Source: Massalongia carnosa (Eukaryota). Taken from it: DNA of 64,000 nucleotides. The DNA is taken from NCBI GenBank assembly GCA_965645245.1, contig OZ287085.1, positions 186,001-250,000 of the forward strand, given 5' to 3'. Made by a program: the position numbers and the translations under genes. Below are positions 2,630 through 28,860 of this stretch, one piece after another (position 1 is the stretch's first letter; every line of letters starts with the position of its first letter). The notes beneath the pieces were generated by a model. That model was not told the DNA's origin, did not search any database, and saw only the letters and a list, made by a program, of their open reading frames with translations.

Positions 2630-5600
2630 GGCACTGTCTCGTTTCGTTAGTACGAATATACTCTATTTTGACCTTTCCCTCTTTGACTACGTCTCTTGTC
2701 CAGTGCCACTTTATTTCGATATGTTTGGTTCTTCGGTGGAACTCAGGATTTTCGGTGAGAGCTATAGCACCTTGGTTATCTCCTCGCAGTAGAATTGGTA
2801 AATTGGCCTCCCGAAATCCCAGTGCGTTGAGAAAACGAGAGCACCATAGAGCTTCGTTGGTAGCCTCCATTAATGCCATGTATTCTGCTTCGCAAGAGGA
2901 TAGCGCCACCGTAGGTTGTAGTTTTGACGAATGAGATATCGGAGCACCTGCTAACATGAAAACATACCCACCGGTAGATCTTCTCCCATCCTTTAGGCTA
3001 GCGAAGTCCGAGTCAGAATAGCTGGTTATATCCTCGTCAGATTCTCTCCGGAATATCAGACCTCTTGTTAGGGTGCCCGAAATATATCGAAGCACTCTCT
3101 GTAGGTGGTTGCAGTGATCAGCACCTGGATTGGAACAATATCTGCTTAGAACTCCCATTGCATAGGCTATATCAGGCCTTGGATGCATGGCGGGCCACAT
3201 GAGAGACCCTACCAGAGACTGATACCATGATATAGTCTCTTTATCAGCCTGGTCTTCGGATGGCATGAGAATGTTTCCGATTCCAGGCTCCATGGGGGTT
3301 GAAATAGGCTTGCAATTAGCCATGTTAAACCGTTCGAGGATTTTCTTTAGATAAGTTGTTTGGCGGAGTGCGATAGTAGACCTCTCTTTGCTAATGTCTA
3401 CCTCGATGCCTAAATAGTGCGATACTTCACCCAGATCCGTCATCTGGAATCGCGACTTCAATTCAGCTTGGAGTTGCTGCAGTTTCAAAGTGTCTTTGCC
3501 CATGATGAGAAGATCATCCACATAGATGGCAATAAACATGTCTTCGGAAACAAACACTCCATGATCTGATTCGGTGTGTTTGAACCCTATCTTCTGGAGA
3601 AAATCCAATAGGGTTTGATACCAAACACGAGGAGATTGCTTTAGCCCATATAGAGCCTTTCGCAACAAGCAGACCTTCTGCTCTCCCCCTGCTACTTCGA
3701 ACAAGGTTGGTTGGATGATATAAATCTCTTCATCGAGATATCCGTATAAGAAGGCAGTCACAACATCCATGTGTCGAATGGAGAGACCCTTTTTAGCACT
3801 GATTTCTATTAGTGTCTTATAGGAGATAGGTTTTACCACGGTGGCAAAGGTGTCTAGGTAATCTAGGCCTTCTTTTTGCTTATATCCATGGACTACCCAT
3901 CTTGCTTTATACTTCAATATATCTCCATTTCTATCCTTATTCAGCTTGAAAACCCACCGTCCTGTGATAGTTTTCCTATCCGTTGGAGTATCGGTTAAAG
4001 TCCAAGTTTCGTTATCCATCAGGGATTTGTACTCAGCTTCCATAGCTTTTCTCCATTCATCCCAGTGGGGGGAGGCCATAGCCTCTCTCAATGTTGCAGG
4101 TTCATCCTGCCCAGCAGTCTCCGATCCTCTGGCTAGTAAAGCTAGGACTCTTACCATATGCTCGTGGGATTTAGGGGTCTGGGTGCTGGTAAATGTGGTA
4201 ACTTTGTTTACCAAATGGCCGTCGTTGGCCACTTTTGGCAGCGATTTCTTCGATATATCGTACCGAATAGTGTCTGCTGCAGGTTTGGAAGAATTTCGTA
4301 ACCTTCCGGATCTCCTTGGTGCGGGAATTGAAGGCTGATCTGGGTCAGATTCTTCAGATTCCTGGTCTCGATGATTGGTATCATCATTGGCTACCTCCGG
4401 AGCTGTTTCTCCCATTGGATAAGACTCATTTCGAGGTGTCGTTAGCAATAATCGTTGTTGGCTGTTCAATGAACTATGGGAATTTGATGCCGGATATAGC
4501 GGAGTGCTATTTTTATGTTTCAGATCTTCAAAGTCATCTGGATCTTGAAAACAAGCATCATCTTCTTCATCCCATGCTACATCAGCTAGGTCCCAGTCCT
4601 TCGCCTCTTTGGAATCATAGGTGTTCAGCTCATCTACTTGTATATCACGAGAGATGTGAAATTTTCCGGTGCGAGGGTCATAGATTCGAAACTGATTCGT
4701 TCCATCGTATCCAACAAAGATCCCTTGCCAAGATCTATCATCCAATTTGGTCCTTTTTTTCTTGGGAATATGCACCCACGTCCTCGAACCTATGATCCTT
4801 AAGTGGCTTAAGGTAGGCTTCTCCTTATTGAGGCACTCATATGGTGTGATTTCATCGACGCCGGGACATCGATTCTTGTTGTAGGCAGAGGTTTTGATTA
4901 CCTCGCCCCAGAGTGATTTAGGGAGCTTTTTGGCTTTGAGCCAGCTCCTCGTTGGTGCCATCAGGGTGGAATTTTGCCGTTCGGCTCTCCCATTTTGTTC
5001 AGGCACATATGGAGCTCTGGCCTCCCATTGAATTCCTTTTTCTTTAAAAAAGGTTAGTAGCTCTGTTTACATACTCTCCCCCTCCATTTCCTCTGACGTG
5101 TTTGATCTCCTGGCCAGATTGCTTCTCTATCCAGGCCTTGAACTGTTTGAACTTGTCTAGTGTTTGGCCTTTGGTCTTCAGCAGAAATACCCATACGACG
5201 CCCGTTGCGTCATCCTTTAGGGTCATGAGATATCTCTCACCGTACCTGGTTGGTGTGTAAGGGCCTCCAAGATCTGTATGAATGATTCCCAGGAATTCTG
5301 GAGCTCTAGATCTTGGACTCCTGTTTACCAGCCTTTGTTGCCTTCCAACCATGCAATCTCCGCAGATTTCTTCCGGAACGGGACCGATGATTGAGGCTCC
5401 TGTGGCCAGTTGGTTGAACTTCAAAAGGTTGTGATAACCAAGATACCCCATACGGGCATGCCAGGTTTGGATGGAGATATTCTTAGTTGTTGTGAGAGCG
5501 CGAGAGTTGGGTGTGGTTTGGATAACATACTGTTTATCGATCAGTTTGGCGTGGCCAATTACCTCCTCTTCGTAATAGATTTTGGAGAGTTCTCCCGCCT

Positions 5601-7327: not shown

Positions 7328-10100
7328 TTGATCATAGTTCTTGATGGTTTCTTCTATCAAAGCAAGCCGGTCAGCGCACTCCGCAAGCTCCATTATATAT
7401 TTCCCTGGATCCTCGTAATAATCGATACAGTTTAAAGTCAACCTCTTAGCTTCGGCAAGCCCGTTTGACTGATAGAGGATCTCTGCGAGCTTGGACTGAA
7501 AAGTCATACTCTGCTGCACTAGCTCAGGTATCTTTTTGGAGTGAAGTAACACTGCCTTCGCATGTGGTAGATAATCAACAAAATTGGCTGGGTTCGGTCG
7601 AGAAAACACTTCGTCTATCAATGAGAGCAAAACCTTTGCATGGTATTCTTCTTTAGCGCTCATTTGATTTCGGGTCCAGGTAGCGATAAGATCGTGAACT
7701 TGATATGTACCCTCTTTGCATATCGAGACAAAGGAATATGAGAGCAGGGTCTCCAGGGCGGCTTCTAAATTCTTACCATTCGCTAATCCTATTTAATTGG
7801 TGGCTTTTGAGTCCAGTAGGTCTTTTGGGACATTTTGATAGTCGAGTATTGACATGAGTTGAAGGAGATCGGCCGCAGACGGACTGACCCTCTTAACGCG
7901 GTGAAAGGAAATGTCCCAGGCCGTCATTATAGCAGGCGTCAGTCGATTATTCGGCTTAAAGCTTAAAGCAAGGTTCTGTAATGGTTTGTCGCGCTTCTTC
8001 AGACTCATTTGACACGCCTCAAGATATTCCGTTATCGAAGTCTCGGTCATGGAAATGAACGATGCCCCTATTGCAATTGCGAGAGGCGAGTGATCAAGCA
8101 ATTTGATGATTTGAATGATCTCGCTCTCATCTAAGGATTTGTCATCGATATCAAGACTAGAATATTTGTGGAATGTTGTTCTTGCCTGCTCAGCAGTCAT
8201 GTTGTCACAGTGCAGCTGATAGGCCCGAAGCGTACGAGATATACCTTCAAGACATGTAGACACAAGTAGAGTCCCCTTTTCGCCAGTCATGATTTTCAAA
8301 GTATAGTCGTCGGTATGGGTAAGATTGTTCACAATGACAAGCCAATTTCCGGATTCGTCAGATGCAAGCCACTTTTTCAATTCCTGGCGGAAAGCGTCTG
8401 GACTCATTCCATCTTTTGAAAGGTTGAGCGCTTTTCCGATTGAGAGAAGGCCGGATAAGAAGCTTTCAACGGTATGACCATCAATCCAAAACACACTACG
8501 AGTATGCAAATTTTGAAAGGCCAAGTTTAAAGCCGCTTGAGTTTTTCTGACAACTAATTTAGCGGTACTTCATCAAATCAAAAGGAATTCCGCATATTTC
8601 AACTAACCCAGTGCCGCCAGGCCCTAGAAGAACAACAGCTTTCTCATCTTTGCAAGTCTTACTTAAAATATTATCGATTCCCCGTCGCGGGGTATATAGT
8701 TCATTTTTCAGATACGGTACAAACATACGAATAGGATGACCGTCTCGGGATCGGAAGTCGATGACTATAGGGGTCATTTCTAGTTAATAACGTTTATAAA
8801 GAAAGAATTATACACAGCATTGAGTACATTGGATACAGTAGACATACAGGGTTCTAAAGATTGCGTTTCCAGCATGACTTGGGCGATATGAATCATAGAG
8901 AGAATTTCTGCGTTCACTTGTCGGAAAGAATTATCGGTCTTTTTAGAGAACTTGATCATGCTTTTATGATCGCCATCGATTGGAATGTGATTATGCCTAA
9001 CTTGATTCGGCACAGCTTCGGTAGCAGAGGATATTTGCACAAGAATGGTTCTTTTGTCATAAACCTCCCACTTACCATTAATTGGTGTTAACCGATTAGA
9101 CCACACTAATTGTAGGCGGCCTGCCAATATCACCACTAATAGAAGTGTCACTCGGTTAGCAAGTGTTGCACTTAGGGAATGGCTGGCTACCGAGTACGCA
9201 CAAAAGGTGATGGGATAAGATACAATAGATATTTAGCTAGAGATGATTTCTATCATAAACAACCATCCTAAATAAACCAGATCAATTTATCAAATCCAAA
9301 ACGAGTCTCTTTTAGAACGTAAACCTACCTAACAAATAAGCTGGAAAGCTTAAGCATATCTAAGCGATAACCAGCTTGATAATTGGGTTTGTCCAATTGA
9401 TCACGATGACGACCCAAATGTCAGCTTGCTCTGCGTAATTGTCAACTCGAATAATGGAGAGCTTTTACCTTTTGACGCGTTTCATAATACGAGAAAAATT
9501 CATACTTTTTTCTATCAAAATGTGTATTAAAATCTTGGCGAAGATTTCTCAACTCTGTTGACTCCGGGTCCAGGGAGCGAATTAAGCTCTGACTCGGCTG
9601 GCCCTTCACGAGTGCGTGTAGAAACTTGGAATTCAAGCCTTTGTCGGGGACTCCAAAAAAAAGAGCACCGATAAAAGAGCCGAGAAGTTTCTGGTGGTCA
9701 AGGCTGCCTGCAGCAGCGTGGCTTGCCGCCTCTACAAGGGCCTATAGAAAAATAATAATTAATGAGATGAAGAATATTAGCATAGTATTAGAGGTCGATG
9801 AATTTTCTAGAGAAATATCAGTGTTGCATCACGATTGGATTTGGTAACAATGTCAATTGCTGAAGGACTGCTTTGTGATTTCTAGAAGTAGTCTGCTAGT
9901 CAAGTGATCTGCTGATAGAGCACTTCAGTCTGCGCCGAAAAAAGAACTCTCCTTACATCTGACTGACTCCTTGCCAACATCAATTGGTAAAGAAGTCCTA
10001 TTCTCAAATCTTTGATTGAGGCGAAAGATTGAGCCAGGTCTGATTTATATCCGTAGATCAGTATTCGCGACCTTTTAACCTGATCTGGGAGAAAGTCGCA
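7328..10100 (-). pseudogene. Disrupted fungal NLR-like gene: SesB-like alpha/beta hydrolase + NB-ARC-type P-loop + helical (TPR-like) C-terminus
   Basis: Fragments DFLPDQVKRSRILIYGYKS, ALFFGVP, IDGDHKSMIKF (SesB-like); VLLGPGGTG (Walker A start, followed by a probable intron); VFWIDG, WLVIVNN, HSPLAIAIGASFI, TAWDISF. Truncated at the 3' end by the Copia LTR; the 5' end is replaced by a duplicated fragment. Confidence 0.75.
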
Positions 10101-10906
10101 CACGTGGGACAGAGATGTTAGAGACGATACTGGAATTTTCTAGTTTCCTTACGAAGAAGTAGCCTTCATCGGTATCATAAAGATTTGGCACTCTCATCAA
10201 AGAGCTTCGGTTACTTCCTCTTCGAATCGCGAGCGAGAGTTGATGAAGTGTATCTATGGAGCCTTCCACCAAACTCAAAGTCGAAATCTGGACTTTGACT
10301 GTGGACAGTGATCGATTGAAGAGCTCGAGCCCAAAATTTGGAATTTCTTTTCGACTAACTTCAGCAAATGCATCAAGGACTTCGTCTGCAAGATCTTTCT
10401 GTCCTGTAAGGGCTGGTAGCTGGTTGTGAGTACAGAGTATGAGAACCCCACCTCCCTCTACTCGCCGTCAGATGGGAAGTCTCACCAGATAGAAGCTGCG
10501 TACACAAAATCTCGAGATTTCCTTCCACGGCAGCTTTCGCAATCGGTGCGGTGCGGAGTCGATAATCAAGGCAGGCTTGGAGGGAGGAGAAGACGCCGAT
10601 ATTTGACGCCCACAAGTCAAATCTACTGAGCTGATCTCCTGCGATGCGTCTAGACTCTTTTGCAAAATTCTCTTGACAACACAGAAGAAGTTTGCGAGTT
10701 CTCTCAGCTGTATCTGATTGAGGATGCAATTTCATTCATGGCTGAGGCGGCGGGCAAGGACGAGGCCATGGTGAAAAAGAGGGCGTAAATTCAAGGCTGC
10801 GAGTTCATGCAACATCAGCAAAGTATGATTTGTGACAACCCGACAAGCAGGGTTGGAGCAAAAGAATACAATATAGTGTGATATGTAGAGAGTATTCAGG
10901 TCCGAT
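10100..10906 (-). pseudogene. Duplicated 5' part (promoter + N-terminal exons) of the C2H2 zinc-finger gene at 11717-24427; frameshifted
   Basis: Near-identical to 12787-13112 + 23173-23355 + 24261-24581. ATG at about 10770 (MASSLPAASAM). It carries a 2-bp deletion relative to the 24427 copy. Confidence 0.85.
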
Positions 10907-13362
10907 GAACGACCCCACCAAAATCCTTCTCCAATCCTGCAGAGAGAATTTAGCAGTCACGATTGAAAGGTCGGAGAAGGATGAATCAGGCAAAGAAAAA
11001 TACGGTGAAAGCATAAATATCATTATATCTTGAAGAATGTTTTGAGCCATTTCTATGCGGGTTGAGAATACTAGATCTGCGAATCATTATTTGTATAAAA
11101 ACCATCACATGGTTTTTATGCACTAGAGTTGGTTGGCATGCAGCGATTCAAAGATGTGCTACAGTCAATAGTGAGCAATACCGGCATAATACTAACAATC
11201 CTAACCCTGCCGAACCGGGCGCAACTTTGTCTCAGCTTTCAAGGTACAATTATCTCACAGGCTTCATCTCGCTTCGGTTTTGACTGACCCAACACCACCT
11301 AGCCCAACGAGCGCAGTCCAAGATCCTGGCACAGCGCATTTTTGGTCGATCTGATCGAGAAGAACTCCACGCTCAACGAAGTCTGGGTCGTGACGGAAAG
11401 GAACGGTAAACGATGTGTTAGGTGGTGTTTCTGTTCGCTCTAGAGTAGGTAGTCGTCAGCACTAGCCATCTTAGATCTTTCCGTAACATACCCGGCGGAA
11501 GATAGAACTCGGTCGTGACCGGCGCGAAGCTCTGCCCTAATTCCAGGCTAAACTTTAGGTTGTGCGATTGTTCTTGTCCATTTCTCCAACATTCTGGTCC
11601 GAATCTGATCCGAGATTGACACGAAATCGATGGCAGTCAGACCAGCCGCAAAATTTTGATTTGACAGACTCTGGGCATTAGTTGCTGTGTGCATAATCGA
11701 GTCGTCGCTGCAAGAGTCACTTTTCTGACAAGTCTAGTTCTTGAAGTTTGGCACGACTGCTTCCGGTATTCTGTCCGGAAGGCCGATTGCTCGCTACGGC
11801 ATCCCAGTCTTTGATATCATTTCTACCTGGCAAGGCCAACAGAAAGGCTTGCTCTAAGTGGTGTGCCATGTGTTTTTGCAAATTAACAGCAGTAGTTTGC
11901 TCCACCAGACAAACAAAGCACCGTTGCGTCAGCATGGCAGGTCGCCTCGCTGCTTTTAGGATGCCGTGCATAGAGCAATCGTCGAGGTCTGGATGATAGA
12001 GGCTCAAGTGTTCCTGGAATTTTATAGCTATATCAAATAGAAGCGCCTGCTTCTCATCCGCATCGACTCCAATATGGGACAAGGGGCACAGCCAGTCTTG
12101 GTCATGAGGCTGACTTAGATGCGCTTGCCAGTCTTTGAAGCTTCGATATGTCTTACCTCGCTGGTTGCAGTTTTGGAACAGACAAATATATGGCTGCAGG
12201 TCCTCCAATAGGTGCTTCTTCCATCTCCGATATTTTTTCTGGTCGGAAAAGGTCTTAGCTGATAACACTAGACAGCAATACGGGCATATTTTCTCCTTGG
12301 TACTTGGCTCCAGCTCCGGCGCAGGCGGCACTTCAAATGGGATTGAACTTCGCAGTCCTCCAAAATTCGACGATGAAGCAGCTGATGATGGAGCATCTGT
12401 AGAAGGGGGTAGTTTGAATGATGTAGACTGAAAATCAGAACCAACTGTCTCACTAGGGGTGTCGTCAGCGATTGTTTGAAACAATGGCTGTTGAATGTCT
12501 GGTCCCTTGAAGTCCGATGGCGACAAGAAATGTGATGCGGTTACTGCCTGCGTGGGCCGAGCACCTAGCTTCATTGATTTAGGCATCGCAACTTTGGTTT
12601 GATGGCTTTGGAAATAAGCTAATTGCCGCCTTCGAACTGAAATTGATGCAACACAGCGTTCGAACATAAATTGTCGGTAGTTTTCTTGATACTGATCAAG
12701 TGCCGCCTTCTCGTTCGACCTTAGCCATCTAGACTTCAGAATCCGGCGAAGAAAGTCCTCAAACCCCGAGGTAGCTTCAAAACGAACACGTGGGACAGAG
12801 ATGCCAGAGACGATACTGGAATTTTCTAGTTCTCTTACGAAGAAGTAGCCTTCATCGGTATCATAAAGATTTGGCACCCTCATCAAAGAGCCTTGGTTAC
12901 TTCCTCTTCGAATCGCGAGCGAGAGTTGATGAAGTGTATCTATGGAGCCTTCCACCAAACTCAAAGTCGAAATTTGGACTTTGACTGTGGACGGTGATCG
13001 ATTGAATAGCTCGAGCCCAAAATTTGAAATTTCTTTTCGACTAACTTCAGCAAATGCATCAAGGACTTCGTCTGCAAGATCTTTCTGTCCTGTAAGGGCT
13101 GGTAGCTGGTTGTGTTAGAATGTACAAATCAGGTTACTTCATTTCAGCCGCACTCACCTTCTACCGCACGAGTATGGCGCACGCTAATGGCTAGACGTAT
13201 CGCTAGTCTAATACTAGCATACCGTACATTGTCTATAAATCTAGCTATTCCCACTATATAGATGAGATGGTTCTATGTCACGTGAGGCCCCTGAGTCAAA
13301 GTAAATTACGAATCACCCTCTGAAAATTCTTTCCTCATCCACTTCTTCTCACTCGGCCTCAT

Positions 13363-13508
13363 CCATCTCACTGACTCGTCGTCGACCCCACGTTGTCTCG
13401 GTGCCCCTACCTCGCTGTCAGTGCTTGCTGCTTTTCCCATCTCACTGACTCGTCGTCGACCTCACGTTGTCCTCGGTGCCCCTACCTCGCTGTCGGTGCT
13501 TTTTCCCA
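13363..13508 (+). repeat. Two tandem ~74-bp repeats in the YR element 5' leader
   Basis: CCATCTCACTGACTCGTCGTCGACC...TCGGTGCCCCTACCTCGCTGTC starts at 13363 and again at 13437. Confidence 0.95.
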
Positions 13509-14522
13509 ATGACGAACACCCGTTCCCAAAGCACCCCGATGGACGACATAGTCCCCGACTCCCAGGAGATTGTCGGATTGACGCAGGCCCAGTCCAATCA
13601 AATCTTCGCCCTACAAAAGAAGAAAGCCGAGGCAGAAGCGAAGGCGGCCGAGGCTGAGGCCAGAATTGCCGAGTCCAAGGCATTGGTCGCCGAGAAGGAG
13701 GTGGAAAAAATGCAGCTAGAAATCGACTGCATGCGCCGAGAATCTGACGCCCGAATAGCGGCCGTCATTCCTGCTGGCAAGCCGAGTCGTGTCGTCGGCG
13801 ATGACGACGAGGACCTAGGTGAGATCCCTCTCGAAGTAAGAAGTATAGCACCCCGTTTCGCGGGCCTACCACAGGACGAGATCATCAAGATCTTTTCAAA
13901 TAAATTCAAAGCCATCAACCTCTCCCGCCTCCGACACATGCACGGCATGCAATACGAGTCCTACAAGGATCAGGACCGCATCGGCATCGAAGACGGCGCC
14001 TTGAGGTTGAGAAAGGCATCCGGGACCTACAAAGATTTCGGAAAGACAGTTCATGACGTCTGGACCGAGAGCTTCATCAACTACACCTCGATCATGGTCA
14101 GTCTTTTCGGGAAATCGAGTCAACAGCTTCACGCCACCATGTCGGCATTCCACGGAAAAATCCTCACGCTGGCCAAGGTGTACGAGTGGCAGGAAGCAGT
14201 CCTCCCCCTCGCCATCGAAACCCACACTCACATCATCGCGTCTCAGCCATCCGACGCATCCCAATGGAAAATGCCCGACGAATTCCAAGCTCGATTCTGC
14301 ACCCCCCTCACAGTCCTACGCCGTCGCCGCTCACGATCCCCGCCGTCCCGGCGACCGACCCCGAGAGGAGACAGGGCCGATAGGGCCGAGAAGGCAGCGG
14401 GGGAAATCTGCGACAAGTACAACAGCGGCACCTGCACCTGGCCGTCGTGCTACCGACAGCACAAATGTAAATCGTGCGGCGCGGCTGGGCATGGCCAGAA
14501 GACATGCCCAACGAAGAAATAG
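13509..14522 (+). CDS. Gag-like protein of YR retroelement (coiled coil, C-terminal Cys/His zinc fingers)
   Basis: First ATG at 13509 in ORF 13467-14522. Ala/Glu/Lys-rich coiled coil. C-terminal CDKYNSGTCTWPSCYRQHKCKSCGAAGHGQKTC. Confidence 0.85.
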   Translation: MTNTRSQSTPMDDIVPDSQEIVGLTQAQSNQIFALQKKKAEAEAKAAEAEARIAESKALVAEKEVEKMQLEIDCMRRESDARIAAVIPAGKPSRVVGDDDEDLGEIPLEVRSIAPRFAGLPQDEIIKIFSNKFKAINLSRLRHMHGMQYESYKDQDRIGIEDGALRLRKASGTYKDFGKTVHDVWTESFINYTSIMVSLFGKSSQQLHATMSAFHGKILTLAKVYEWQEAVLPLAIETHTHIIASQPSDASQWKMPDEFQARFCTPLTVLRRRRSRSPPSRRPTPRGDRADRAEKAAGEICDKYNSGTCTWPSCYRQHKCKSCGAAGHGQKTCPTKK

Positions 14523-14567
14523 GGGGTTGGTGCAGGAGGCAGTAGAATAGCTTCAATAGCTGAATTC

Positions 14568-16271
14568 ATGACGTCCCATCCCTGCTTACCTGCACCAATC
14601 AGACCAAATACAATCCCTTCGTTTCAACTCGTAGACGCATCTCGTCAGCGTTTGAAAGACAGCCCATCTCCCCTCGTACCGTCCGCATGGGCAACTCTAC
14701 TTCAAGAGTATCCGGGCCCCCTCCGAGTCCATCTGCCCATGATCCTTCGTTTCGGAGTACAAATCGGATACGAAGGCCCCACAGACATCCTTCGGATTGA
14801 AAAAAATCTGACATCAGCGAATGAGGACCCGGAAACGATCGAGAATAAGCTCCAAGAGGACCTCAGGAAGGGCCGAGTCAGACGAATAGCCGCCCCGAGT
14901 CAGCCATTTGTGGCCTCCCCCCTCGGCTTGGTCCCGAAACATGACGGAGGATGGCGACGCATTCATCATCTGTCTCATCCCAATCAAACATCAGTCAACG
15001 ACAACATTCCAGAAGAGGCATCCAAATTACAATACGCCAGACTCGACGACATTATTCAATTGATTCTGTCAGCGGGCAAAGGTGCTGTCATAGTGAAAAG
15101 AGACGTCAAAGACGCCTTTCGAAACGTTCCCGTCGCACCTCATCATCAATGGCTTCTGGGTTTCGGATGGAATGACGAATTCTACACCGAGACATGCCTT
15201 TCGTTCGGACTGTCGACGGCCCCGTTCATCTTCAATCTTTTTGCGGAAGGCTTTCATTGGATTTTGGAATCCTTTCTACAATGGAGATTACATCACTATC
15301 TAGACGACTTCGTTGCAATTTTCCCATCCGAGACATCGTCAGAACGATTGCACCAAGAAACAAAAGCCTACAACATTCTCACCGACATTCTTGGCATCCA
15401 GAGAAACGACTCAAAAGACGCCGAGGGAACGACAGCGACAGTCTTCGGACTCGAGGTCGACACCATCAACAGTCTTATTCGTCTGCCAGCGGACAAGCTG
15501 GAAAAAGCGAGAATCATCACTACAAAGGCACTAAACGAGACGACAATCAGCCTCGGCGACATGCAGTCAATAGCGGGCTTCCTAAGCTTCTGCGCACAGG
15601 CAGTCAAATTGGGCCGAGTCTTCTTACGATTATTCTGGAATTTTATAGCCTCATTTCCCTCGGGCAGTCATCGTCGGGTCAAAAGAAGAATTCCCACATG
15701 GGTCAGACAGGATCTCATCTGGTGGAACAAACTTCTAGTGGACTTCAACGGTATTGTCTTCTTCGAGACGTCAACACGAGACACGATCAAGGTGCATACG
15801 GATGCATGCCTCACGGGTCTCGGAGGCTATTTTCAACAAGACAACGAGCTCGTGAATCAAAAAAACGCATGTAGGGCCCGAGTCCTAGTCCTCAATCAGG
15901 AAGGATCACCGAGCATAAACGTCCGAGAAGTCGAAGCTATCCTTCTAATCCTTCAGAAATGGGCGCCGACATGGCGACATCGACAGATCCTTGTCTTTAC
16001 CGACAGCAACACAGCATACACAGGATTCACGAATCTAACCCTCAAGGGACCGGCCAACGCGCCTCTACGAGAAATACTGTCCATAGCTGCAAAGTGGGAC
16101 ATCGTACTACGTTGTCAATGGATCAGTGGCACTTCCAATGGACTAGCAGATGCCCTGTCACGTTTTGATGATGAAAGATTGGCTAACTTTTGCCCTCATT
16201 GGCAGAACCCATACAATTCGATGAACCTCCCTCCACCTACCTATCCTCCACACCAGGGTCAGCCCTGGTAA
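14568..16271 (+). CDS. Reverse transcriptase + RNase H (DIRS/Ngaro type)
   Basis: SPLGLVPK, WRRIHHLS, KRDVKDAFR, LSFGLSTAPFIF, HYLDDF; RNase H TDACLTGLGG, INVRE, FTDSN, NGLADALSR. Confidence 0.95.
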   Translation: MTSHPCLPAPIRPNTIPSFQLVDASRQRLKDSPSPLVPSAWATLLQEYPGPLRVHLPMILRFGVQIGYEGPTDILRIEKNLTSANEDPETIENKLQEDLRKGRVRRIAAPSQPFVASPLGLVPKHDGGWRRIHHLSHPNQTSVNDNIPEEASKLQYARLDDIIQLILSAGKGAVIVKRDVKDAFRNVPVAPHHQWLLGFGWNDEFYTETCLSFGLSTAPFIFNLFAEGFHWILESFLQWRLHHYLDDFVAIFPSETSSERLHQETKAYNILTDILGIQRNDSKDAEGTTATVFGLEVDTINSLIRLPADKLEKARIITTKALNETTISLGDMQSIAGFLSFCAQAVKLGRVFLRLFWNFIASFPSGSHRRVKRRIPTWVRQDLIWWNKLLVDFNGIVFFETSTRDTIKVHTDACLTGLGGYFQQDNELVNQKNACRARVLVLNQEGSPSINVREVEAILLILQKWAPTWRHRQILVFTDSNTAYTGFTNLTLKGPANAPLREILSIAAKWDIVLRCQWISGTSNGLADALSRFDDERLANFCPHWQNPYNSMNLPPPTYPPHQGQPW

Positions 16272-17353
16272 AACGTCTCGTCTGGCACGGACACTCGGCG
16301 GACACGAGAAAAGGGTACGGGACGGCGATCGACTCATACGAGGCATTCTGCGCGACGACGGGACGCACGTCGTGGCCTGCAACAACCGAGTCCCTCGAGG
16401 AATGGCTAGCCGGTCGACTATACGGGGGCGGCACACCCAAGCAGGGAAAGATAAAACCAGAGACGGCAGCGAGCTACCTCGCCGGCCTCAGATCATACCA
16501 TGTAGACCGAGGATACGGCCTCACCCCATTCGAGGGGCCGAGACTTCAATTGATGCTGAAAGGGGGAAAAAGGATCTTTTCTCAGACAAAAAGAAGACGC
16601 CTACCCATTTCAAAAGAATTACTGACAAAAATCACCAGTATTCCCGCTCATTCGGCCGAAGACCTCAACATCGACGCGACATTCAAAGTTGCATGGGCAG
16701 GGTTCCTCAGACTCGGGGAAATCACCTACACTGTCGCTGATCGTAAGAAGACATCTTTTCAGAGATTGAAACCTACACGAGGTGACATCTCATTCGCCGA
16801 GAACGATCAATACGCGACATTACGTCTCAAAAGAAGCAAAACAGACACAAATCACTCAGGAGTTCAGATAGTGCTGGCAGCGACCAATGAGAGCACTTGC
16901 CCCGTGACAGCACTACGGCGTCTTTTCAGAAATGATCCTCAGCCATCTACATCCCCGCTTTTTCGTCTCGGCACCGCATTCACCAGAGCCTCCGTCATAG
17001 CATCCCTGAAAAAGAGACTGATAGCCGTCGGCATCAACGACTCGGCATACTCGGGACACAGCTTCAGAAAAGGAGCAGCACAACACGCCGCCGACCACGG
17101 GATGCTGGATGAGAGTATTCAGAGACTCGGAAGATGGTCATCAAACGCGTTTCAGCTATACTTTCAGACGTCCCAGGCCTCACTATTCAATTTGAACCTC
17201 AGTTTTCAAAAAGGCATCCCTCTAGCAGTCCCACGTGCTGTCGTCGCCGAGACGAATCCTACAAACTCCTACCCCTACTCAATTGGGCATTCCATTGGGC
17301 GTACAGGTCAACCAGGGCATCGATCCGGAGCGCCGCCGGGCACCTCCATCTAG
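16190..17353 (+). CDS. Tyrosine recombinase (phage-integrase family) of YR retroelement
   Basis: Catalytic motifs FLRLGE, LKRSKTD, GHSFRKGAA, LGRWSSNAFQLY. Overlaps the RT ORF in another frame, as in DIRS/Ngaro elements. Confidence 0.93.
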   Translation: MPSLAEPIQFDEPPSTYLSSTPGSALVKRLVWHGHSADTRKGYGTAIDSYEAFCATTGRTSWPATTESLEEWLAGRLYGGGTPKQGKIKPETAASYLAGLRSYHVDRGYGLTPFEGPRLQLMLKGGKRIFSQTKRRRLPISKELLTKITSIPAHSAEDLNIDATFKVAWAGFLRLGEITYTVADRKKTSFQRLKPTRGDISFAENDQYATLRLKRSKTDTNHSGVQIVLAATNESTCPVTALRRLFRNDPQPSTSPLFRLGTAFTRASVIASLKKRLIAVGINDSAYSGHSFRKGAAQHAADHGMLDESIQRLGRWSSNAFQLYFQTSQASLFNLNLSFQKGIPLAVPRAVVAETNPTNSYPYSIGHSIGRTGQPGHRSGAPPGTSI

Positions 17354-17870
17354 ATCATCGCCGTCGGGCACTGCCGTCGGGCATCATCTATCGGATCGTT
17401 GAGCGTCAGCAGACGCCTCGGGCCTAGAAGATGAGGTTCTCACCTCAGCACCGACCCCGAGTCACGTGCCTAGGCCTGCCCGGGCTGACCTGTGTCGTTC
17501 CCATGCCCAATCAAATTCAAGCATTCAAATCAATTCATCCAATTAAAAGCCCCCCCAGCGCAAGCGAAGGTAACGGCACCGATAAGGGTCATAGAACAAC
17601 AGCAAGCGTTCTATCCTCTATCTACTATACTACCTTTTGATAGGTTATGAGCCCGGCCGCAGGGCGCCTCTTTACATGTGTTTGCTTGTCTTACTTTACC
17701 TACCCTAACACAAGCCTCCTTACCGTCGCAAACAATTACCGTCGCGAATAATCTCCTACAAAAAAATCCGACACAAATCGACACATATGAAACAGTCGGC
17801 AGTGTTTGAGATGGCTAAGCACTACTATCGGGCGCCCGGCTTCTCTTTGCCCCTTACTAAACGAACGCTA

Positions 17871-18009
17871 ACATTCCCAACAAAAACTCGGGAATGTGAC
17901 ATCCAGGTGTCTCAGATGATCTACATTTCCAATAAAAAACCGGGAATGTGACATCCAGATGTCTCGGATGATCTACGTTCCCAACAAAAAACCGGGAATG
18001 TGACATCCA
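17871..18009 (+). repeat. ~2.6 copies of a 52-bp tandem repeat in Copia 5' leader
   Basis: ACATTCCCAACAAAAA..CGGGAATGTGACATCCA units start at about 17871, 17923 and 17975. Confidence 0.9.
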
Positions 18010-18612
18010 TTGGGATGAAACCAAATCTCCCTGTAATCGATTTTGCCCTCTATTCATAGTCAGCATCTGCGTATCAGTTATAAGACTGCAGGATTATGGC
18101 TTCGAGCAACAAAAAACGCTCTCGATTTATCAACCACAAAGGCACAACTAAACGCCTCAAATCTATCTTTGCACCTGCATCTGCTTCTGCGTTTAGATCT
18201 ATTATATCAATCACTGCCCCATTCCTACGTGGCACTCTTGCCGAGATCCAATGACTCTCAGAGCCTCAACCAAATAATAGGCCGGCAACAAGGCTTGAAC
18301 GGGATTCACAACATACATTACAGGCGGCTAGTGCGGAAATCGTTGCTTTCTCTTAGAGGATAACTCAGATCAATCAAAATTGGATTGCTTTGTACCATCA
18401 TCCCTGAGCCTCCAGTCACTCCCGGTCAGTCCACATCAAAATCGGACCTAGAACCGCCCAGCGACTGTGATCCTTTCGATCTAAGAGCCAGAACCAAGTC
18501 ACCAAGCACTTATAATAGCACTCCGTCGGAATCCGGTAAAACCAAACACCAGTTCAAGCCAGTCCGTTAACAAGGACAATCCATTAAGCTCTTCCAATAA
18601 ACCCTTTCCATC

Positions 18613-21600
18613 ATGAGTGAAAAAATCTCTGGATCGGGGTCCTATAGCGCTATTGATAGGATCCCTAAGCTAGTGGACCACGAGGGTTATCCAGCATGGA
18701 AGCGAGCCATGCGAGATTGCCTCAAAATGATAGATCTTTGGATCTATTGTGATAACACCGAAGCTGCACCACGCCCAAACGCTCCCAATGATGGCTTCAA
18801 CAAATGGAAAAAGGGCCAAGATAAGGCCTGCACTGCTCTACGATTAGCTTGTGAAGGAAATGCCTACACCGATATAGAAGACCATACTACTGCTTCCGTC
18901 GCCTGGGACCTGCTTGAGTCAAACTATAAGCCTCGCGGTTCGGGATTCCTCAATGACACCTTTAGAAAATTAGACAACCTTATCCTATCGGATTGCAGCA
19001 GCCCTGCAGACTACGTTACCCAATTTCGCGCCACGGTGAATAAGCTTCGCACCTTCTCAAGCAAGCTAAGCCTGGACGAAAACTGGCTTATCTATCGCTT
19101 CCATACCAATTTAGGCTTCGAATACAACAGCTATTTCGAACGATACGCTCAGGATCATGATCCTTTCAATGAAATGGGTGAACCCAAGCACACGTTAAGT
19201 CAGGCTATGCAGCATTTCCAAAACACGGTGACCAACCCAAGCAAGTCCAGCGATAAGGCCGTAATCGCAATGGCAGCTGTTTCAAACGCTCAAACCCAAG
19301 CAGGAGCTCAACCCGGAACAGCCCATTCTCGAATCATCACCAAGACCATCAAGTTCTGCAACCACTGCCGAAAAGACTATCACGTAGAGAGCGAGTGTCG
19401 TGAAAAATATCCACACCTCGTTAACCAAGACTCACAGCGTAAGTCCAATAAGCGTCGTAGGAATTCCAAAAGTCAAGGTCAAAGCCAAAAGCCAACCGGA
19501 AACAATGACTCAACCAAAGGAGCCTTCTGCGCCTACATGGCCACCGCAGATATAACCAAAATATCTAAGCTCTGGATCTGTGACTCTGGAACTAGCCAAC
19601 ATATTACCCACGATCGCTCCATCTTCACCTCATTCAAGACATCCGATTGCCCTCCAATTCAAGGTATTGGAGGAGTATTAATTCCCAAAGGAATAGGTAA
19701 CGTCATGTTGCGGTGTGCCGGTAACGAGGGTCTTCGGGAGTTCCCTCTTTTCGATGTGTTATACGTTCCGGACGGAGGCCTAAATCTCATCTCCCAAGGA
19801 CAATTACAACGAGATGGATGTCCCCTGAAGATTGTACCAGAGGGAATTGAAATCGGGAACTATGGTATTATCGCTCGCCGCCAGGACAACAATCTGTATA
19901 TCCTGAATATGTGGAACGTCTCTGAAGCCGCTCTCGCTCTTGCTGCAATTAATAGCGAGGCGATAAAAATGTGGCACGCTCGTTTAGGCCATCTTGGAAA
20001 TCAAAACATTCTCAAGCTCGCTGGCATGTCAAAAGGAATGGACCTCACCAAGCCCCCGCCCCAAGACGCCTGTCCTCCGTGCGCCATCGCTCAGTCCCAA
20101 GTAGAACCACACCGGGCCCCCATCCAACCAGGCAAGCACCCGCTGGACTTAATTCACAGTGATGTCCAAGGACCTTTCCCAGAAGCCTTGAACGGCGCCA
20201 AATATATGGTGACCTTTCTTTGCGATTTCGATAAACGGTCCCACGTCACCTTACTGCGCGTCAAAAGCGGAGTCCTTCAAGCTTTTAAAAACTACAAGAA
20301 GCAAAATGAATATGGGGACAAACGAATTAAGCGCTTGCGATCGGACTGTGGGGGTGAGTATGACTCCAAGGACTTCGAGAATTTCAGAAACGAGCATGGC
20401 ATTCAGTGGGAACCTACCGTACCGGGAAATCCACCCATGAACGGGACAGCCGAGCGCCTAGGTCAAACGCTTCACAAGTTAGCCAGCACCATGCGAGAAG
20501 GCGCTAAACTAGACATCAAATATTGGGCTGAGATGGTTCTCACTGCCAACTACCTAAGAAATCGACAACCAACTGCGGGACGCTCCATCACCCCCTACGA
20601 GTCTCACACCGGCAGCCCACCAGAACTAGGACATCTAAGGATAATAGGACAGACTGGCTATGCGCAAAATCGCAAGCCCTCCACCGGATGGAAGAAATTT
20701 CAGGAACGAGCCACCAAATGTACTTTAGTAGGATACGAAGGCGATCACATCTATCGAATGATAAATCCACGGGGCGCGGTCATGCGTTATTCCAATGTTC
20801 AGTGGATAGATAACAACCCCCCAACTCCTCCTTCCTTATCATTCTCTCAAACTAAAAGAGCCCTACATGTTGGACAGTCAGGACCGCCCACAAGAAAGCA
20901 AAAAATTACCCATCATACGGACTCCCCTCATACGGACTTAGTCGACGCTCATGAATCCATAGAATCAATTCCCACTGGACCTCTCCCATCAAACGCTGGA
21001 AAAGAGGCATTGGCAAACCAACTGCCCATTGAGCCTTGGTCCCAGGCAGATATTCTCTCTAAGCATCCAAAACTTCGCGCCCCCTCGCCTGACCCGCTTG
21101 CTCTTTTGGCTCTTCTTGCTCGAGCCAATGACCCGGAGCCATACGAGCCTAAAACCTATAAACAGGCCGTAGATAGTCGGGAGGAAAAGGATTGGCGAAG
21201 GGCAATGCAGGAAGAAATTGACTCTATCAACGAAAATGATACCTGGATCCTCACCTCCCTGCCCCCGGACCGCAAAGCCCTGCGAGGCAAATGGGTTTAT
21301 AAAATCAAACGAGGCCCGGCTGGCGAGATTCTTCGTTACAAGGCTCGATGGGTAGTCAGAGGCTTTGAGCAACGTGAAGGCATTGACTACAATGAGACTT
21401 TTGCTTCAGTAGTGAAGCCAATGAGCTATAAAGCCATCTTCGCTATCGCTGCAGCCAATGATTGGGAAATCCACCAAATGGACGTAAAAACAGCCTTCTT
21501 GTACGGAAGGGTGGACGAGGAAATCTACGTGGAGCAACCAACCGGTCTGGATGACGGGTCAACGAGAGTTTGCAAGTTGAAGAAAGCTCTTTATGGCCTG

Positions 21601-22737: not shown

Positions 22738-23355
22738 ACCAGAAGCCCTTTGTCGTAAAAAATTCGACCTTAACCCAAAAAAAAAAAAAAAAAGTATCAC
22801 CCACAGCTGAGCCTGTGGGGGTGTTTTCGTACATCGCCAGCAGCATTAGCCTGCGGAGTACACTGACTCACCTGCAGGTGATCCACTGGGAAGCATGATA
22901 TTATACTGGAGTATGTGGGAGTTATTGAATTTCTCTTTATCATGTGGGAGTGCTATTTCAGTGCCTGAGTGGGAGTGTTAGAATGTACAAATCAGGTTAC
23001 TTCATTTCAGCCGCACTCACCTTCTACCGCACGAGTATGGCGCACGCTAATGGCTAGACGTATCGCTAGTCTAATACTAGCATACCGTACATTGTCTATA
23101 AATCTAGCTATTCCCACTATATAGAACAACAGCAAGCGTTCTATCCTCTATCTACTATACTACCTTTTGATAGGTTGTGAGTACAGAGTATGAGAACCCC
23201 ACCTCCCTCTACTCGCCGTCAGATGGGAAGTCTCACCAGATAGAAGCTGCGTACACAAAATCTCGAGATTTCCCTCCACGGCAGCTTTCGCAATCGGTGC
23301 GGTGCGGAGTCGATAATCAAGGCAGGCTTGGAGGGAGGAGAAGACGCCGATATTT

Positions 23356-27600: not shown

Positions 27601-28860
27601 GGACACTAACTCCGTGGCTTCCCCGATGGATAGGCGACTGGAGGCTGCACCAGAGGGCCATCAGGCCACAGATAACTCTCGCCTCCGCTACCAATCAGCG
27701 GTGGGCTCTCTCATCATGTATGCTATGCTAGGCACCAGGCCTGACTTAGCCTACGCCGTATCGGTGGTCAGCCGCTATGCCTCGAACCCGACCGACACGC
27801 ACTAGAAGGCAGCCAAACGCATCTTTCGATACATCAAGGGCACTCTTCCGTTGCAGTTAACATACAAAGGTCACTTACAACCCTTGAACGGTTACACTGA
27901 GGCGGAATGGGCCGGAGATCATCATACCCGAAGGTCTACCTCTGGCTTCGTGTTTAATGTGGGTAGTGGCACTATTAGCTTGTCTTCCAAACGACAATTG
28001 ACCGTAGCTCTATCTTCATGTGAAACCGAGTACATGGGTCAGACCCAAGCCACCAAGGAAGCTGTCTGGTTGTCTAGTCTTCTCGACCAACTTTCAGCAC
28101 CTCAAGTCCCTGGGAATCACTCTCTCCAAACCCAGAGCACCTTTGTAGCCCTTGCCTGCTTGCCTACATCTTTCGCCCTAAATGCTATCATCATTCACTG
28201 CGACAATCAAGGAGCAATGGCTTTGGCCAAAAATCCCCAGGCACACGCGCGGAGCAAGCATATTGACATCCAATGGCACTACCAAAGAGAGAAGATCGAA
28301 GACAAATCAGTGGAATTTCGCTATGTTCCTACCAAAGAGCAGGTAGCTGACGGCCTAACCAAGGCCCTACCAAAGGACAAATTTGTTGTCTTTCGAAAGG
28401 CTTTAGGCTTAGAGTAAACCAGAAGCCCTTTGTCGTAAAAAATCCGACCTTAACCCAAAAAAAAAAAAAAAAAGAAAGTATCACCCACAGCTGAGCCTGT
28501 GGGGGTGTTTTCGTACATCGCCAGCAGCATTAGCCTGCGGAGTACACTGACTCACCTGCAGGTGATCCACTGGGAAGCATGATATTATACTGGAGTATGT
28601 GGGAGTTATTGAATTTCTCTTTATCATGTGGGAGTACTATTTCAGTGCCTGAGTGGGAGTGTTAGAATGTTCAAATCAGGCTACTTCATTTCAGCCGCAC
28701 TCACCTTCTACCGCACGAGTATGACGCACGTTAGTTAATGGCTAGACGTATCGCTAGTCTAATACTATGATACCGTACATTGTCTATAAATCTAGCTATT
28801 CCCACTATATAGAACAAAAGCAAGCGTTCTATCTTCTATCCACTATACTACCTTTTGATA
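24612..28860 (+). mobile_element. Degenerate, 5'-truncated second copy of the Copia at 13113-23172, with 3' LTR 28660-28860
   Basis: Colinear with about 19022-23172. ORF pieces 24763-28417 are broken by frameshifts and stops. The LTR again ends ...TTTTGATA. Confidence 0.95.
25526..25621 (+). repeat. Solo LTR of the TRIM family (internally deleted, 96 bp)
   Basis: TGTTGGAATACTCG...TTTAACA with TSD GCTCT (25521-25525, 25622-25626), inside the degenerate Copia. Confidence 0.93.

Follow-up and report, generated by a model that had tools for sequence, protein, structure and literature searches.

The window, as we call the whole 64-kb stretch of Massalongia carnosa DNA analysed here, carries a complete Ngaro-like tyrosine-recombinase retrotransposon without terminal repeats. 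Its genes lie in the order gag, reverse transcriptase (RT)-RNase H and Cre-like tyrosine recombinase, and its extent was set by empty-site comparison and contig joints. The features of the locus are as follows, all on the plus strand except where stated.

13263-17595, plus strand: the complete element, 4333 bp
13509-14522, plus strand: gag-like open reading frame (ORF) with a CX2CX4HX4C zinc knuckle
14568-16271, plus strand: RT/RNase H ORF with a YLDD motif
16190-17353, plus strand: Cre-like tyrosine recombinase ORF, overlapping pol in a different frame
13258-13262, no strand assigned: ATAGA from the target, which together with the element's first 14 nt gives the full motif at the left junction (13258-13276, pattern match)
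13263-13277, plus strand: 5' half of the recombination motif, spacer TGAGATGGT and then arm TCTATG; relatives have the same motif
13263-13370, plus strand: predicted 5' hairpin, 13263-13270 with 13363-13370 and 13282-13289 with 13355-13362
13363-13436, plus strand: leader unit 1, ICR-like; CCATCTCA is complementary to the 5' end, then comes a 13-nt insert, and 13384-13436 complements the last 47 nt before ATAGA
13437-13510, plus strand: leader unit 2, an extra copy that overlaps the gag ATG and is variable among insertions
17419-17464, plus strand: direct but degenerate junction copy, roughly 200 nt behind the recombinase domain (alignment score 13, weak)
17545-17590, plus strand: 3'-terminal arm, pairing with the leader unit or units
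17590-17595, plus strand: CATAGA, the left motif arm, formed by the element's last bases and the sole inverted match between its first and last 100 nt
23121-23144, plus strand: target without insertion, itself an ATAGA-N14-TCTAT pseudo-site; a second lies at 28809-28832

The ORFs of the element are intact. The gag-like ORF matches gag regions of relatives in tblastn and had no match in a Pfam search, and the second ORF matches RVT_1 (2e-12) and RT_RNaseH (1.5e-4). In the recombinase, the catalytic R, H-x-x-R, W and Y are present as conserved R174, H290, R293, W316 and Y324; the Pfam match to Phage_integrase is weak (0.0054), and 11 of the 24 aligned members match that profile. A structure model of the protein (pLDDT 80.9) resembles Cre in Foldseek (E 1e-8, about 330 columns), whereas searching PDB sequences with a profile of the recombinase alignment yielded no match. 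Pfam found no methyltransferase, protease or DDE integrase (rve) in the element. RT/RNase H combined with a tyrosine recombinase, and with neither DDE integrase nor protease, is the arrangement of the DIRS order. The succession gag, RT/RNase H and recombinase, without the methyltransferase that DIRS1-like elements carry in pol, is shared with Ngaro elements (PAT-like, VIPER); this likeness is one of gene content and order, and the relatives compared below are metagenomic loci.

The element family appears to be active. Recombinase sequences at least 90% identical form a cluster of 54 on Mb-sized contigs, and more distant recombinase homologues match at 91% and at 55-67%. Eight public sequencing runs contain at least half of the element's sampled words, and no RNA run is among the runs listed. 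Across contigs, the insertions vary at 21 sites in the 4333 nt.

The ends assumed in the first-pass annotation proved correct, since empty copies of the target in the window and contig joints from two sequencing runs fix them. The flanks 13112-13262 and 17591-17651 run uninterrupted at 22975-23181 and 28659-28873 (empty-site comparison within the window), and in contigs from runs X1 and X2 base 13257 is followed directly by 17591, a skip of 4333 nt with 5 ambiguous letters. In other insertions, as seen in loose contig ends, the sequence departs before 13263 and behind 17595; the insertion in run X8 has a different 5' flank. One correction applies at the 3' end, where ATAGA (17591-17595) is either part of the element or the crossover core. 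In the empty sites, TATATAGA before the breakpoint is followed by ACAACAG. The empty site has one ATAGA and the occupied site one on each side, so that in the one insertion seen in full there is no classical target-site duplication and junction and target share a short sequence, as is typical of the DIRS order. A search of the window for the pseudo-site pattern gave 5 matches against 0.46 expected, and no further copy of the element was found there.

Joining the two ends produces CATAGA-N9-TCTATG, and in the window the element's motif arises only in this way. Across 390 kb of relatives, ATAGA-N7-10-TCTAT has 29 matches where about 1.5 are expected, and 21 of 70 testable metagenomic relatives have an intact motif roughly 200-680 nt behind the recombinase gene. 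The window junction resembles loxP in having two inverted arms around a short spacer, here of 9 nt, with crossover at the arm/spacer border, and the recombinase model matches Cre. The arms of loxP are 13 bp, whereas those of the window motif are only 5-6 nt, and the targets are pseudo-sites with a 14-nt spacer. The nearest relatives have an intact internal site at +194 to +201 behind the recombinase, matching the position of the degenerate junction copy at 17419-17464. That stretch is probably the vestige of a B1/A2 junction; its alignment score is attained in 37 of 1000 shuffles when the junction includes ATAGA and in 190 of 1000 when it does not.

The leader contains a tandem repeat, and its description in the first-pass annotation was accurate: 13363-13397 recurs as 13437-13471 and 13397-13426 as 13472-13501, 97% alike at a spacing of 74/75 nt. 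Unit 1 begins 100 nt behind ATAGA. Its reverse complement had been read as matching the element's 3' end, and it does so at 17 of 20 positions of 17563-17582, with one gap. The pairing is longer than had been noted, with 37-38 pairs between 13384-13435 and 17545-17590, beginning at 17590. In the cofold, the tail of unit 2 (13488-13503) pairs with 17545-17560. Additional short complements to GAGTCA and, in copy 2, to ACGTGAGG are present as described, but the minimum-energy fold puts 13282-13289 with 13355-13362. The 5' hairpin that contains this pairing folds at -28.2 kcal/mol (z -3.37), which none of 200 shuffles attains.

The central proposal, that the joined 3' and 5' ends have a gapped complement in the unit, holds beyond chance in duplex, cofold and alignment shuffles. 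Unit 1 forms a duplex of -42.7 kcal/mol with the last 60 or 100 nt of the element, compared with -25.6±4.1 (1 of 500 as low) and -28.1±4.1 (0 of 500) in the respective shuffles. RNAcofold of 13263-13510 with 17350-17595 yields a gain of -25.9 kcal/mol against -12.75±3.92 in shuffles, none of 200 being as low, and for the minus strand with DNA parameters the gain is -22.1 against -9.57±2.6 (0 of 150 shuffles). The joined junction folds with z -5.4, 36 pairs linking the 3'-end side and the leader. Aligned with the reverse complement of 13323-13436, the joined junction scores 16; 2 of 1000 shuffles attain this value, as does 1 of 1212 other segments of the 64 kb. The complement of the first 8 nt is found in 262 of 20000 shuffled leaders (p ~0.013). 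A broad alignment test blind to the ends was reached by 21 of 300 shuffles, or 52 of 300 with flanks added. Duplex prediction on whole UTRs (319 of 500 and 293 of 500 shuffles as low) is uninformative because long spurious duplexes are built.

Contigs of all four sequencing runs compared (X1, X2, X8 and X9) contain the duplication. Unit 2 differs among insertions, with C>A at 13438 and, in X9, 1- and 17-nt deletions at 13471 and 13487. Given this variation, the suggestion that two repeat copies are needed finds no support, and we regard unit 2 as an extra copy fixed in the window element's family, without demonstrated need. No substitutions are listed in unit 1 or the 3' arm, which is uninformative because only about 0.6 would be expected in these 126 nt. 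Among the 15 of 38 joints listed for contigs of the same four runs, none is a 3'-to-5', circle-junction or tandem joint.

Tests for both known kinds of terminal repeat remain at shuffle level. The first 100 nt compared with the reverse complement of the last 100 score 6, from TCTATG/CATAGA only, and 988 of 1000 shuffles equal this; the inverted terminal repeats (ITRs) of DIRS1-like elements are absent. The split direct repeats of Ngaro elements, A1-[ORFs]-B1A2B2, are also missing: in direct comparison of leader and 3' UTR 330 of 500 shuffles score as high, a repeat search found none, and for a B1 copy (B versus upstream sequence) 334 of 500 shuffles score as high. Where Ngaro, PAT-like and VIPER elements have A2 and B1 copies, the window element has only the degenerate stretch 17419-17464. 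Local fold-back of the 3' end inside the 3' UTR is not significant. With neither ITRs nor split direct repeats, nothing in the element other than the leader complement repeats the junction.

To compare relatives, we used metagenomic loci (numbered with the prefix L). A tree was built from 35 of 80 such loci plus the window, picked for the motif or near-full length and limited to metagenomic relatives; L073, L074 and L078 were left out, as their recombinase matches are shorter than 250 residues. Relatives with recombinases 35-50% identical have clear A and B repeats, with the same recombination motif at B1/A2, and split direct repeats are present in L020, L030, L048, L067, L069, L032 and L060. 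We aligned the junction with the reverse complement of the following 250 nt; 8 of 22 loci have a score that at most 10 of 300 shuffles attain, namely the window, L024/L026/L027/L029, L061 and L032/L069. In controls (direct orientation or upstream region) the same threshold was reached in 5 of 64 cells. A further family scores similarly, with 3 of 300 shuffles for L015 and 1 of 300 for L074. By this alignment test, at least three other families have an inverted junction copy behind the motif, and in the relatives it starts 74-109 nt behind ATAGA. Once the conserved motif is excluded, own-family arm scores (window 14, L026 17, L069 11) exceed the cross-family value of 8.05±1.33, which indicates that arms match within families even though the families no longer resemble one another. 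Scores of L013, L061 and L060, with the motif excluded, are not above the cross-family background, and L046 and all 8 of 8 loci of the L030 family are without an inverted junction copy. L060 and L058 have a second inverted junction copy on the opposite side of the site.

Support from covariation in relatives is thin. For the L024 family, pairing holds in 91 of 92 cells, compared with 48-59% when partners are slid; two pairs changed in a compensatory way, four single changes are compatible with wobble and one change breaks a pair. The covariation rests on two sublineages, and 14 of 500 shuffles reach the score. The L069 family has no compensatory change. Thermodynamic support in relatives is mostly weak. 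Of 11 relatives outside the L030 family, only L069, L032 and L064 have a cofold gain with z <= -3; contiguous folds of relatives range from z -2.0 to +0.1, and the cofold gains of the L030 family arise from pairing inside the B repeat. Across nine loci, 36 of 52 arm mismatches are transversions, and mismatches of the wobble type amount to 7 for the plus strand and 9 for the minus strand. As these are few and alike on the two strands, there is no sign of RNA-type wobble tolerance or strand preference. The inverted copy is contiguous across the junction in L013, L061, L060 and L067, and is still imperfect.

Two comparisons of wider scope were made. Strict Smith-Waterman alignment of leader and 3' UTR in 16 relatives found short matches only, apart from a 15-nt perfect inverted match in L049. 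A lenient, broad test of 12 relatives, including L018 and L022, which lie near the window element on the tree, gave none at or below 5 of 300 (best, L049, 32 of 300); its negatives say little, because the test is underpowered, the window itself reaching only 21 of 300 and 52 of 300. The tandem leader repeat of L015 was considered as a junction complement and rejected (282 of 300 shuffles).

Long-range pairing of 5' and 3' RNA regions is known from CYC5/CYC3 of Ty1 and from flavivirus cyclisation sequences, which are short, near-perfect segments in LTR elements or RNA viruses. By likeness to these, the leader and 3'-end complements of the window element could cyclise genomic RNA. A closer parallel is the ICR of DIRS-1, an internal segment whose reverse complement reads as the 3' end and then the 5' end (PMC7192593, PMC3266345). 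The leader unit likewise complements both termini, colinearly and in circle-junction order (37-38 pairs plus 8 nt). Lengths are of the same order (55 nt right and 33 nt left in DIRS-1, about 47 and 8 nt here), and both elements integrate by tyrosine recombinase without classical target-site duplication (PMC7192593, PMC3266345). The DIRS-1 ICR is 88 nt long (33 + 55), exactly complementary, located near the right repeat and essential (PMC7192593); it is single-copy, contiguous across the 3-bp junction and thought to template the missing ends (PMC7192593, PMC3266345). The window unit, in contrast, is located in the 5' leader at a distance of 100 nt from the end, is duplicated and imperfect (17 of 20 in the best block, with bulges), contains a 13-nt insert and leaves ATAGA uncomplemented, in an element without ITRs or methyltransferase. 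The comparison with the DIRS-1 ICR made in the first-pass annotation is therefore apt as to both termini in junction order, but an imperfect complement that skips ATAGA and carries an insert is not a strict ICR. The same literature describes DIRS-1 intermediates as linear single-stranded cDNA and reports that deletion of the ICR left cDNA synthesis running (PMC7192593). The accessible parts of PMC3783388, PMC8547959, PMC6681497 and PMC3266345 do not mention an A repeat that contains an inverted junction copy.

We propose that unit 1 is a functional analogue of the DIRS-1 ICR in a Ngaro-like element that lost the split direct repeats of its relatives, and that it scaffolds the ends for joining, a reading to which we give an even chance. 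In a single-stranded intermediate, either genomic RNA or first-strand cDNA, 13384-13436 would pair with the last 47 nt before ATAGA, pairing being possible on both strands, and the neighbouring CCATCTCA would pair with the element's first 8 nt. Both ends would then be folded onto one scaffold, near the joining point for CATAGA-N9-TCTATG, and the Cre-like recombinase would insert the element via the joined site into ATAGA...TCTAT-like pseudo-sites. The complement would hold the ends for template switching or closure and would do no templating. Being imperfect and gapped, it could act as a scaffold and not as a template; because ATAGA is skipped and a 13-nt insert intervenes, the ends could neither be regenerated by copying nor be held as a ligatable nick.

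A bolder version, which we put forward tentatively as possible but doubtful, is that the element represents a third terminal architecture, with neither ITRs plus ICR nor split direct repeats. The sole redundancy of the junction would be the imperfect inverted copy in the leader, on which a linear single-stranded intermediate folds, and template switching or recombinase action on the folded substrate would make CATAGA-N9-TCTATG. Recombinases act on folded substrates in CTX phage and at integron attC sites.

The scaffold reading has to be weighed against other explanations. The arms could be inverted sequences bound by the recombinase or an accessory protein on joined or circular dsDNA, similar to phage attP arm-type sites or transposon terminal inverted repeats, in which case pairing between arms would be irrelevant. 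This would fit the position of the arms, one lying directly beside the core motif and the other 74-109 nt from it, a fairly constant distance, the lack of a wobble excess among mismatches, and the Cre-like nature of the recombinase, as such enzymes bind inverted repeats. Moreover, in L013, L061, L060 and L067 the inverted copy includes a half-site (ATAGAT and a few spacer bases), resembling a third arm. We nevertheless consider protein binding unlikely: at 25-50 nt with several indels the arms are longer and looser than usual sites, the inverted copy in the window omits ATAGA, the motif's one conserved arm, and the arms are 4.1 kb apart in the integrated element, becoming adjacent only after a joining that itself needs explanation. 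Alternatively, pairing may serve priming or RNA management. Reverse transcription could start from a 3' end of the genomic RNA folded back on the leader unit or, in relatives, on the A2 copy that lies just upstream; or the 5' and 3' ends could cyclise to aid translation or packaging. Extension of a 3' end paired to the window leader would yield a copy of no more than about 120 nt of leader, and of a sense unsuited to full cDNA, and a poly(A) tail would unpair the 3' OH; in DIRS-1, ICR deletion did not abolish cDNA synthesis, according to PMC7192593, which also mentions a 3' hairpin proposed for priming. Speaking for such a role, the A repeat of split-repeat relatives begins at the crossover and stops where the inverted copy stops, or at most 18 nt behind it (L067, A2 5416-5537 and copy 5494-5537; L069, A2 7628-7744 and copy 7709-7746), a boundary expected if synthesis starts or switches at that point, and unit 2 ends at the gag ATG. 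On balance this seems improbable.

The inverted copy could also be a roleless by-product of replication, made by snap-back or strand-switch synthesis near the junction and renewed occasionally. Imperfect arms with many transversions would be expected from such a process, as would the renewed duplication of the unit in the window element's family, the free decay of unit 2 and the second inverted junction copy beyond the site in L060/L058. Sporadic accidents would not be expected to leave the copy at a constant position across families that can no longer be aligned, and we hold this account to be quite improbable. Least probable of all, in our estimate very much so, is chance complementarity between a C/T-rich leader and a G/A-containing 3' end. 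The broad end-blind alignments (21 of 300, 52 of 300) and the 8-mer alone (p ~0.013) would allow it; the energy-based tests (0 of 200, 0 of 150, 0 to 1 of 500) argue against it, as do the anchoring of the pairing on independently determined ends and its recurrence in other families.

Going by the accessible parts of the literature, priming and end closure in elements of the DIRS order are still largely a model, with only the DIRS-1 ICR tested experimentally. Because both known kinds of terminal repeat are absent from the window element, accepted models leave the regeneration of a complete copy unexplained. A leader-borne complement of the junction is a concrete and testable candidate for end joining without terminal repeats, and it connects two features, the ICR of DIRS1-like elements and the A/B repeats of their Ngaro-like counterparts. 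In practical terms, the conserved ATAGA-N-TCTAT motif can be used to find true ends and target sites in fungal-type assemblies. If the element does represent a third terminal architecture, then the leader element hidden in the A repeat would be an unrecognised working part of ordinary Ngaro elements.

The tandem leader repeat described in the first-pass annotation (unit 1, 13363–13436; unit 2, 13437–13510) is real, and it forms part of the 5' leader of a retroelement that encodes three plus-strand open reading frames (ORFs):

13509–14522, +, gag-like ORF with a CX2CX4HX4C knuckle
14568–16271, +, RT/RNase H ORF (Pfam RVT_1, 2e-12; RT_RNaseH, 1.5e-4; YLDD)
16190–17353, +, tyrosine recombinase ORF, overlapping the RT/RNase H ORF (sole Pfam match Phage_integrase, weak, 0.0054)

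The third ORF is, as judged from alignment and a predicted structure, a tyrosine recombinase. It has 243 homologues; R174, H290, R293, W316 and Y324 are conserved in the alignment, and 11 of 24 aligned members match Phage_integrase. Its AlphaFold model (pLDDT 80.9) aligns with Cre recombinase across some 330 columns (Foldseek E 1e-8); searching PDB sequences with a profile returned zero matches. Given the recombinase, and since no methyltransferase, protease or DDE integrase was found in the element, it belongs to the DIRS order, with gene content of Ngaro type. The host is eukaryotic and may be a fungus, as suggested by the Mb-sized contigs bearing the protein and by where Ngaro elements are known to occur (excerpts of PMC3783388).

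The ends assumed in the first pass can be proved inside the window from uninterrupted copies of the flanks: 13112–13262 and 17591–17651 run together at two places, 22975–23181 (100% and 98% identity) and 28659–28873. Contigs from public sequencing runs join 13257 to 17591 (one in X1, seven in X2; 4333 bases skipped, 5 ambiguous letters), and loose ends of other insertions occur before 13263 (X2 and a further run, X8) and behind 17595 (X2). Together these delimit the element as 13263–17595. ATAGA forms its last five bases and also the end of the target, so that the insertion has a copy at either side. The uninterrupted targets are ATAGA-N14-TCTAT pseudo-sites, and the site pattern matches five times in the window against 0.46 expected: one attL-like site, one attR-like site, two empty sites and one in the neighbouring ORF.

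That neighbouring 1374-aa ORF (18613–22737, +) is an intact Ty1/copia polyprotein (RVT_2, 1e-70; rve; gag domains), flanked on both sides by the target repeat, which may be a copia LTR; the element would then lie inside a young copia 5' LTR. The match within it (ATAGA-N8-TCTAT, 18730–18747) may be chance or a further pseudo-target. Just outside the element, upstream of the copia ORF, are three tandem 52-nt units (17871–18026; 88% and 73% identical to the first), and a 215-bp stretch left of the insertion (12900–13114) has a second copy, 98% identical, some 2.7 kb upstream (10214–10428).

For comparison we took 80 metagenomic loci of relatives, whose recombinases are 35–50% identical to that of the window. 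The motif ATAGA-N7–10-TCTAT occurs 29 times in 390 kb of these sequences against about 1.5 expected; of the 70 loci that could be tested, 21 have it no more than 700 nt past the recombinase domain. Where relatives carry split direct repeats (A1-[ORFs]-B1A2B2), it falls exactly at the B1/A2 junction; integrated copies start and stop within it (for example loci L030 and L048), and the L002 contig terminates at ...ATAGAT. In the window the motif, CATAGA-TGAGATGGT-TCTATG, is formed only by joining 17595 to 13263. The first and last 100 nt of the element hold no ITRs, their sole inverted match being the two 6-nt motif arms. The motif and the pseudo-site targets fit site-specific insertion by a Cre-like enzyme, and bear out independently the circle-junction order that had been proposed.

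Unit 1 is complementary to both sides of this junction. Every complementary block named in the first pass is present, and pairing with the 3' end extends beyond what was claimed, to 37 pairs between 13384–13435 and 17545–17590, beginning at the last base ahead of ATAGA. At the unit start, CCATCTCA pairs with the element's first 8 nt and so closes a 5' hairpin (−28.2 kcal/mol, z −3.37). The duplex of unit 1 with the last 60 or 100 nt reaches −42.7 kcal/mol, a value as low in 1/500 and 0/500 shuffles. RNAcofold of 13263–13510 with 17350–17595, the comparison suggested at the outset, gave a gain of −25.9 against −12.75 ± 3.92 in shuffles (0/200), with intermolecular pairs that are precisely the unit 1 and 3' arm segments; the minus strand under DNA parameters gave −22.1 against −9.57 ± 2.6 (0/150). 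The joined junction (240 nt) folds with z −5.4, and its alignment to the reverse complement of 13323–13436 scores 16, matched by 2 of 1000 shuffles and 1 of 1212 other segments of the 64-kb stretch.

The complement is imperfect: its best block is 17/20, it contains bulges, ATAGA is left uncomplemented, and an insert of 13 nt occupies the point at which the ends would meet. This gapped structure rules out the unit as a template for copying the ends, since young copies would otherwise match it exactly. Run contigs list no substitution at unit 1 or the 3' arm, so that the imperfection is the family's common state rather than decay of this copy. The seven-C run at 17550–17556 varies in length, one extra C being inserted behind 17549 in about one-fifth of X2 depth. 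Contigs of X1 and X8 span the duplicated leader without gaps, and in another run, X9, both units are present, unit 2 being short of 1 + 17 nt. A 13438 C>A change, which spoils CCATCTCA in unit 2, accounts for about 57% of X2 depth and also occurs in X9; leader variants 13309 and 13339 fall at unpaired hairpin positions. In unit 1 and the 3' arm only about 0.6 substitutions were expected, and their absence from the comparison of copies carries no weight. From its sequences the family looks active, given the intact ORFs, the unsubstituted pairing segments, a cluster of 54 recombinase sequences at least 90% identical, and eight runs containing half or more of the element's sampled words.

Inverted junction copies are also found in relatives. 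We compared the 55 nt before the motif, ATAGA and 15 nt more with the reverse complement of the following 250 nt (300 shuffles per locus). In 8 of 22 loci at most 10 shuffles reached the score (window 6, L024 1, L026 0, L027 1, L029 10, L061 2, L032 3, L069 3); L013 gave 19, and a further family gave 3 (L015) and 1 (L074). This alignment detected no copy in L046 or in any of eight L030-family loci. Three controls (direct orientation, and upstream in either orientation) comprised 64 cells, five of which reached the same level; two of the five were in direct orientation (L064, L048), where split direct repeats could explain the match. The distance from ATAGA to the start of the copy is 74–109 nt in relatives and 100 nt in the window, making unit 1 the positional counterpart and unit 2 an extra copy. 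In L013, L061, L060 and L067 it extends through ATAGAT into the first 2–5 spacer bases, and is thus contiguous across the crossover. In those relatives that have split direct repeats, the A repeat begins at the crossover and stops where the inverted copy stops or up to 18 nt behind it.

With the motif excluded, own-family scores were 14 (window), 17 (L026) and 11 (L069) against 8.05 ± 1.33 when families were mismatched; no score above that background was obtained for L013, L061 or L060. Inverted copies occur on either side of the midpoint root of the recombinase tree. Outside the ORFs the families can no longer be aligned. Three of them have nonetheless kept their own two arms alike, and complementarity is therefore maintained, by selection or by the replication mechanism.

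Other repeats occur in these loci. L060 (7073–7110) and L058 (3741–3778) carry a second inverted junction copy some 190–220 nt ahead of the site and immediately after the recombinase gene, where DIRS1-like elements have their internal complementary region (ICR). Between recombinase and gag, L027 (2825–3368) has the order X, a 61-nt stretch containing the site, Y, a 56-nt stretch, X, Y; the last two segments abut and lack the site, an arrangement that may come from chimeric assembly of two variants. In L015 (57–216), L018 (4337–4642) and L063 (2746–3118) the leader, 3' UTR or an ORF contains tandem repeats, and the L015 leader repeat shows no complementarity to its own junction.

Classical split direct repeats are present in L020, L030, L048, L067, L069, L032, L060 and other relatives. 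The window element has none: its leader and 3' UTR compared in direct orientation gave a score reached by 330 of 500 shuffles, and its 3' end against upstream sequence one reached by 334 of 500. A degenerate junction-like stretch at 17419–17464, about 200 nt behind the recombinase domain (weak score, 37/1000 shuffles), can be read as a putative vestige of B1/A2; the nearest site-bearing family has an intact site at +194 to +201.

Because the element has neither an ICR nor B1A2 and does have the leader unit, we read unit 1 as a scaffold holding the ends together, and give this reading an even chance. Unit 1 would keep the two termini of a single-stranded intermediate together, next to the place where the recombination site is to form. 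This could let reverse transcriptase pass from the 5' end over to the 3' end, or allow closure of the ends, after which the Cre-like recombinase would integrate the joined form at ATAGA...TCTAT pseudo-sites. The original observation thus stands and is extended; its interpretation stands in part, with the mechanism a matter of inference.

The comparative evidence has its limits. In the L024 family pairing holds in 91 of 92 cells, versus 48–59% with partners slid; two pairs show compensation, four single changes are wobble-compatible and one change breaks a pair, and the covariation score, underlain by two sublineages, is reached by 14/500 shuffles. The L069 family has 97 of 99 cells paired and zero compensatory changes. 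Among 11 relatives outside the L030 family, only L069, L032 and L064 attain a cofold gain of z −3 or lower, and L030-family gains represent pairing within the B repeat; contiguous folds of relatives include the helix (15–39 pairs in near families) at z of only −2.0 to +0.1. Arm mismatches over nine loci (36 transversions, 7 plus-strand and 9 minus-strand wobble types) do not discriminate among RNA, DNA and protein-site readings. That the arms are double-stranded accessory sites for the recombinase we think rather unlikely, and a role of the pairing in RNA priming or cyclisation more doubtful still. An inverted copy arising as a replication by-product is improbable. Chance complementarity we rate lowest, as very improbable. 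The anchored 8-mer is found in 262/20000 shuffled leaders, and two tests of the pairing were weak, duplexfold on whole UTRs (319/500 shuffles as low) and a broad alignment ignoring the ends (21/300; 52/300 with flanks added).

Returning to the scaffold, DIRS-1 cannot do without its ICR, which complements both ends exactly over 88 nt, and produces linear single-stranded cDNA (excerpts of PMC7192593). In Ngaro-type elements the internal junction copy is believed to be B1A2 (excerpts of PMC6681497 and PMC8547959). The portions of the tyrosine-recombinase retroelement literature covered, which exclude the original Ngaro papers, describe repeats solely as ITR plus ICR or as split direct repeats. 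We found there no description of an inverted junction copy in Ngaro-type elements, although an earlier one may exist in those papers. The leader unit would work like an ICR but departs from it in exactness, in contiguity (in the window) and in position near the right repeat, and the element lacks the repeats by which DIRS1-like and Ngaro elements are each defined. The finding is relevant to students of tyrosine-recombinase retroelements.
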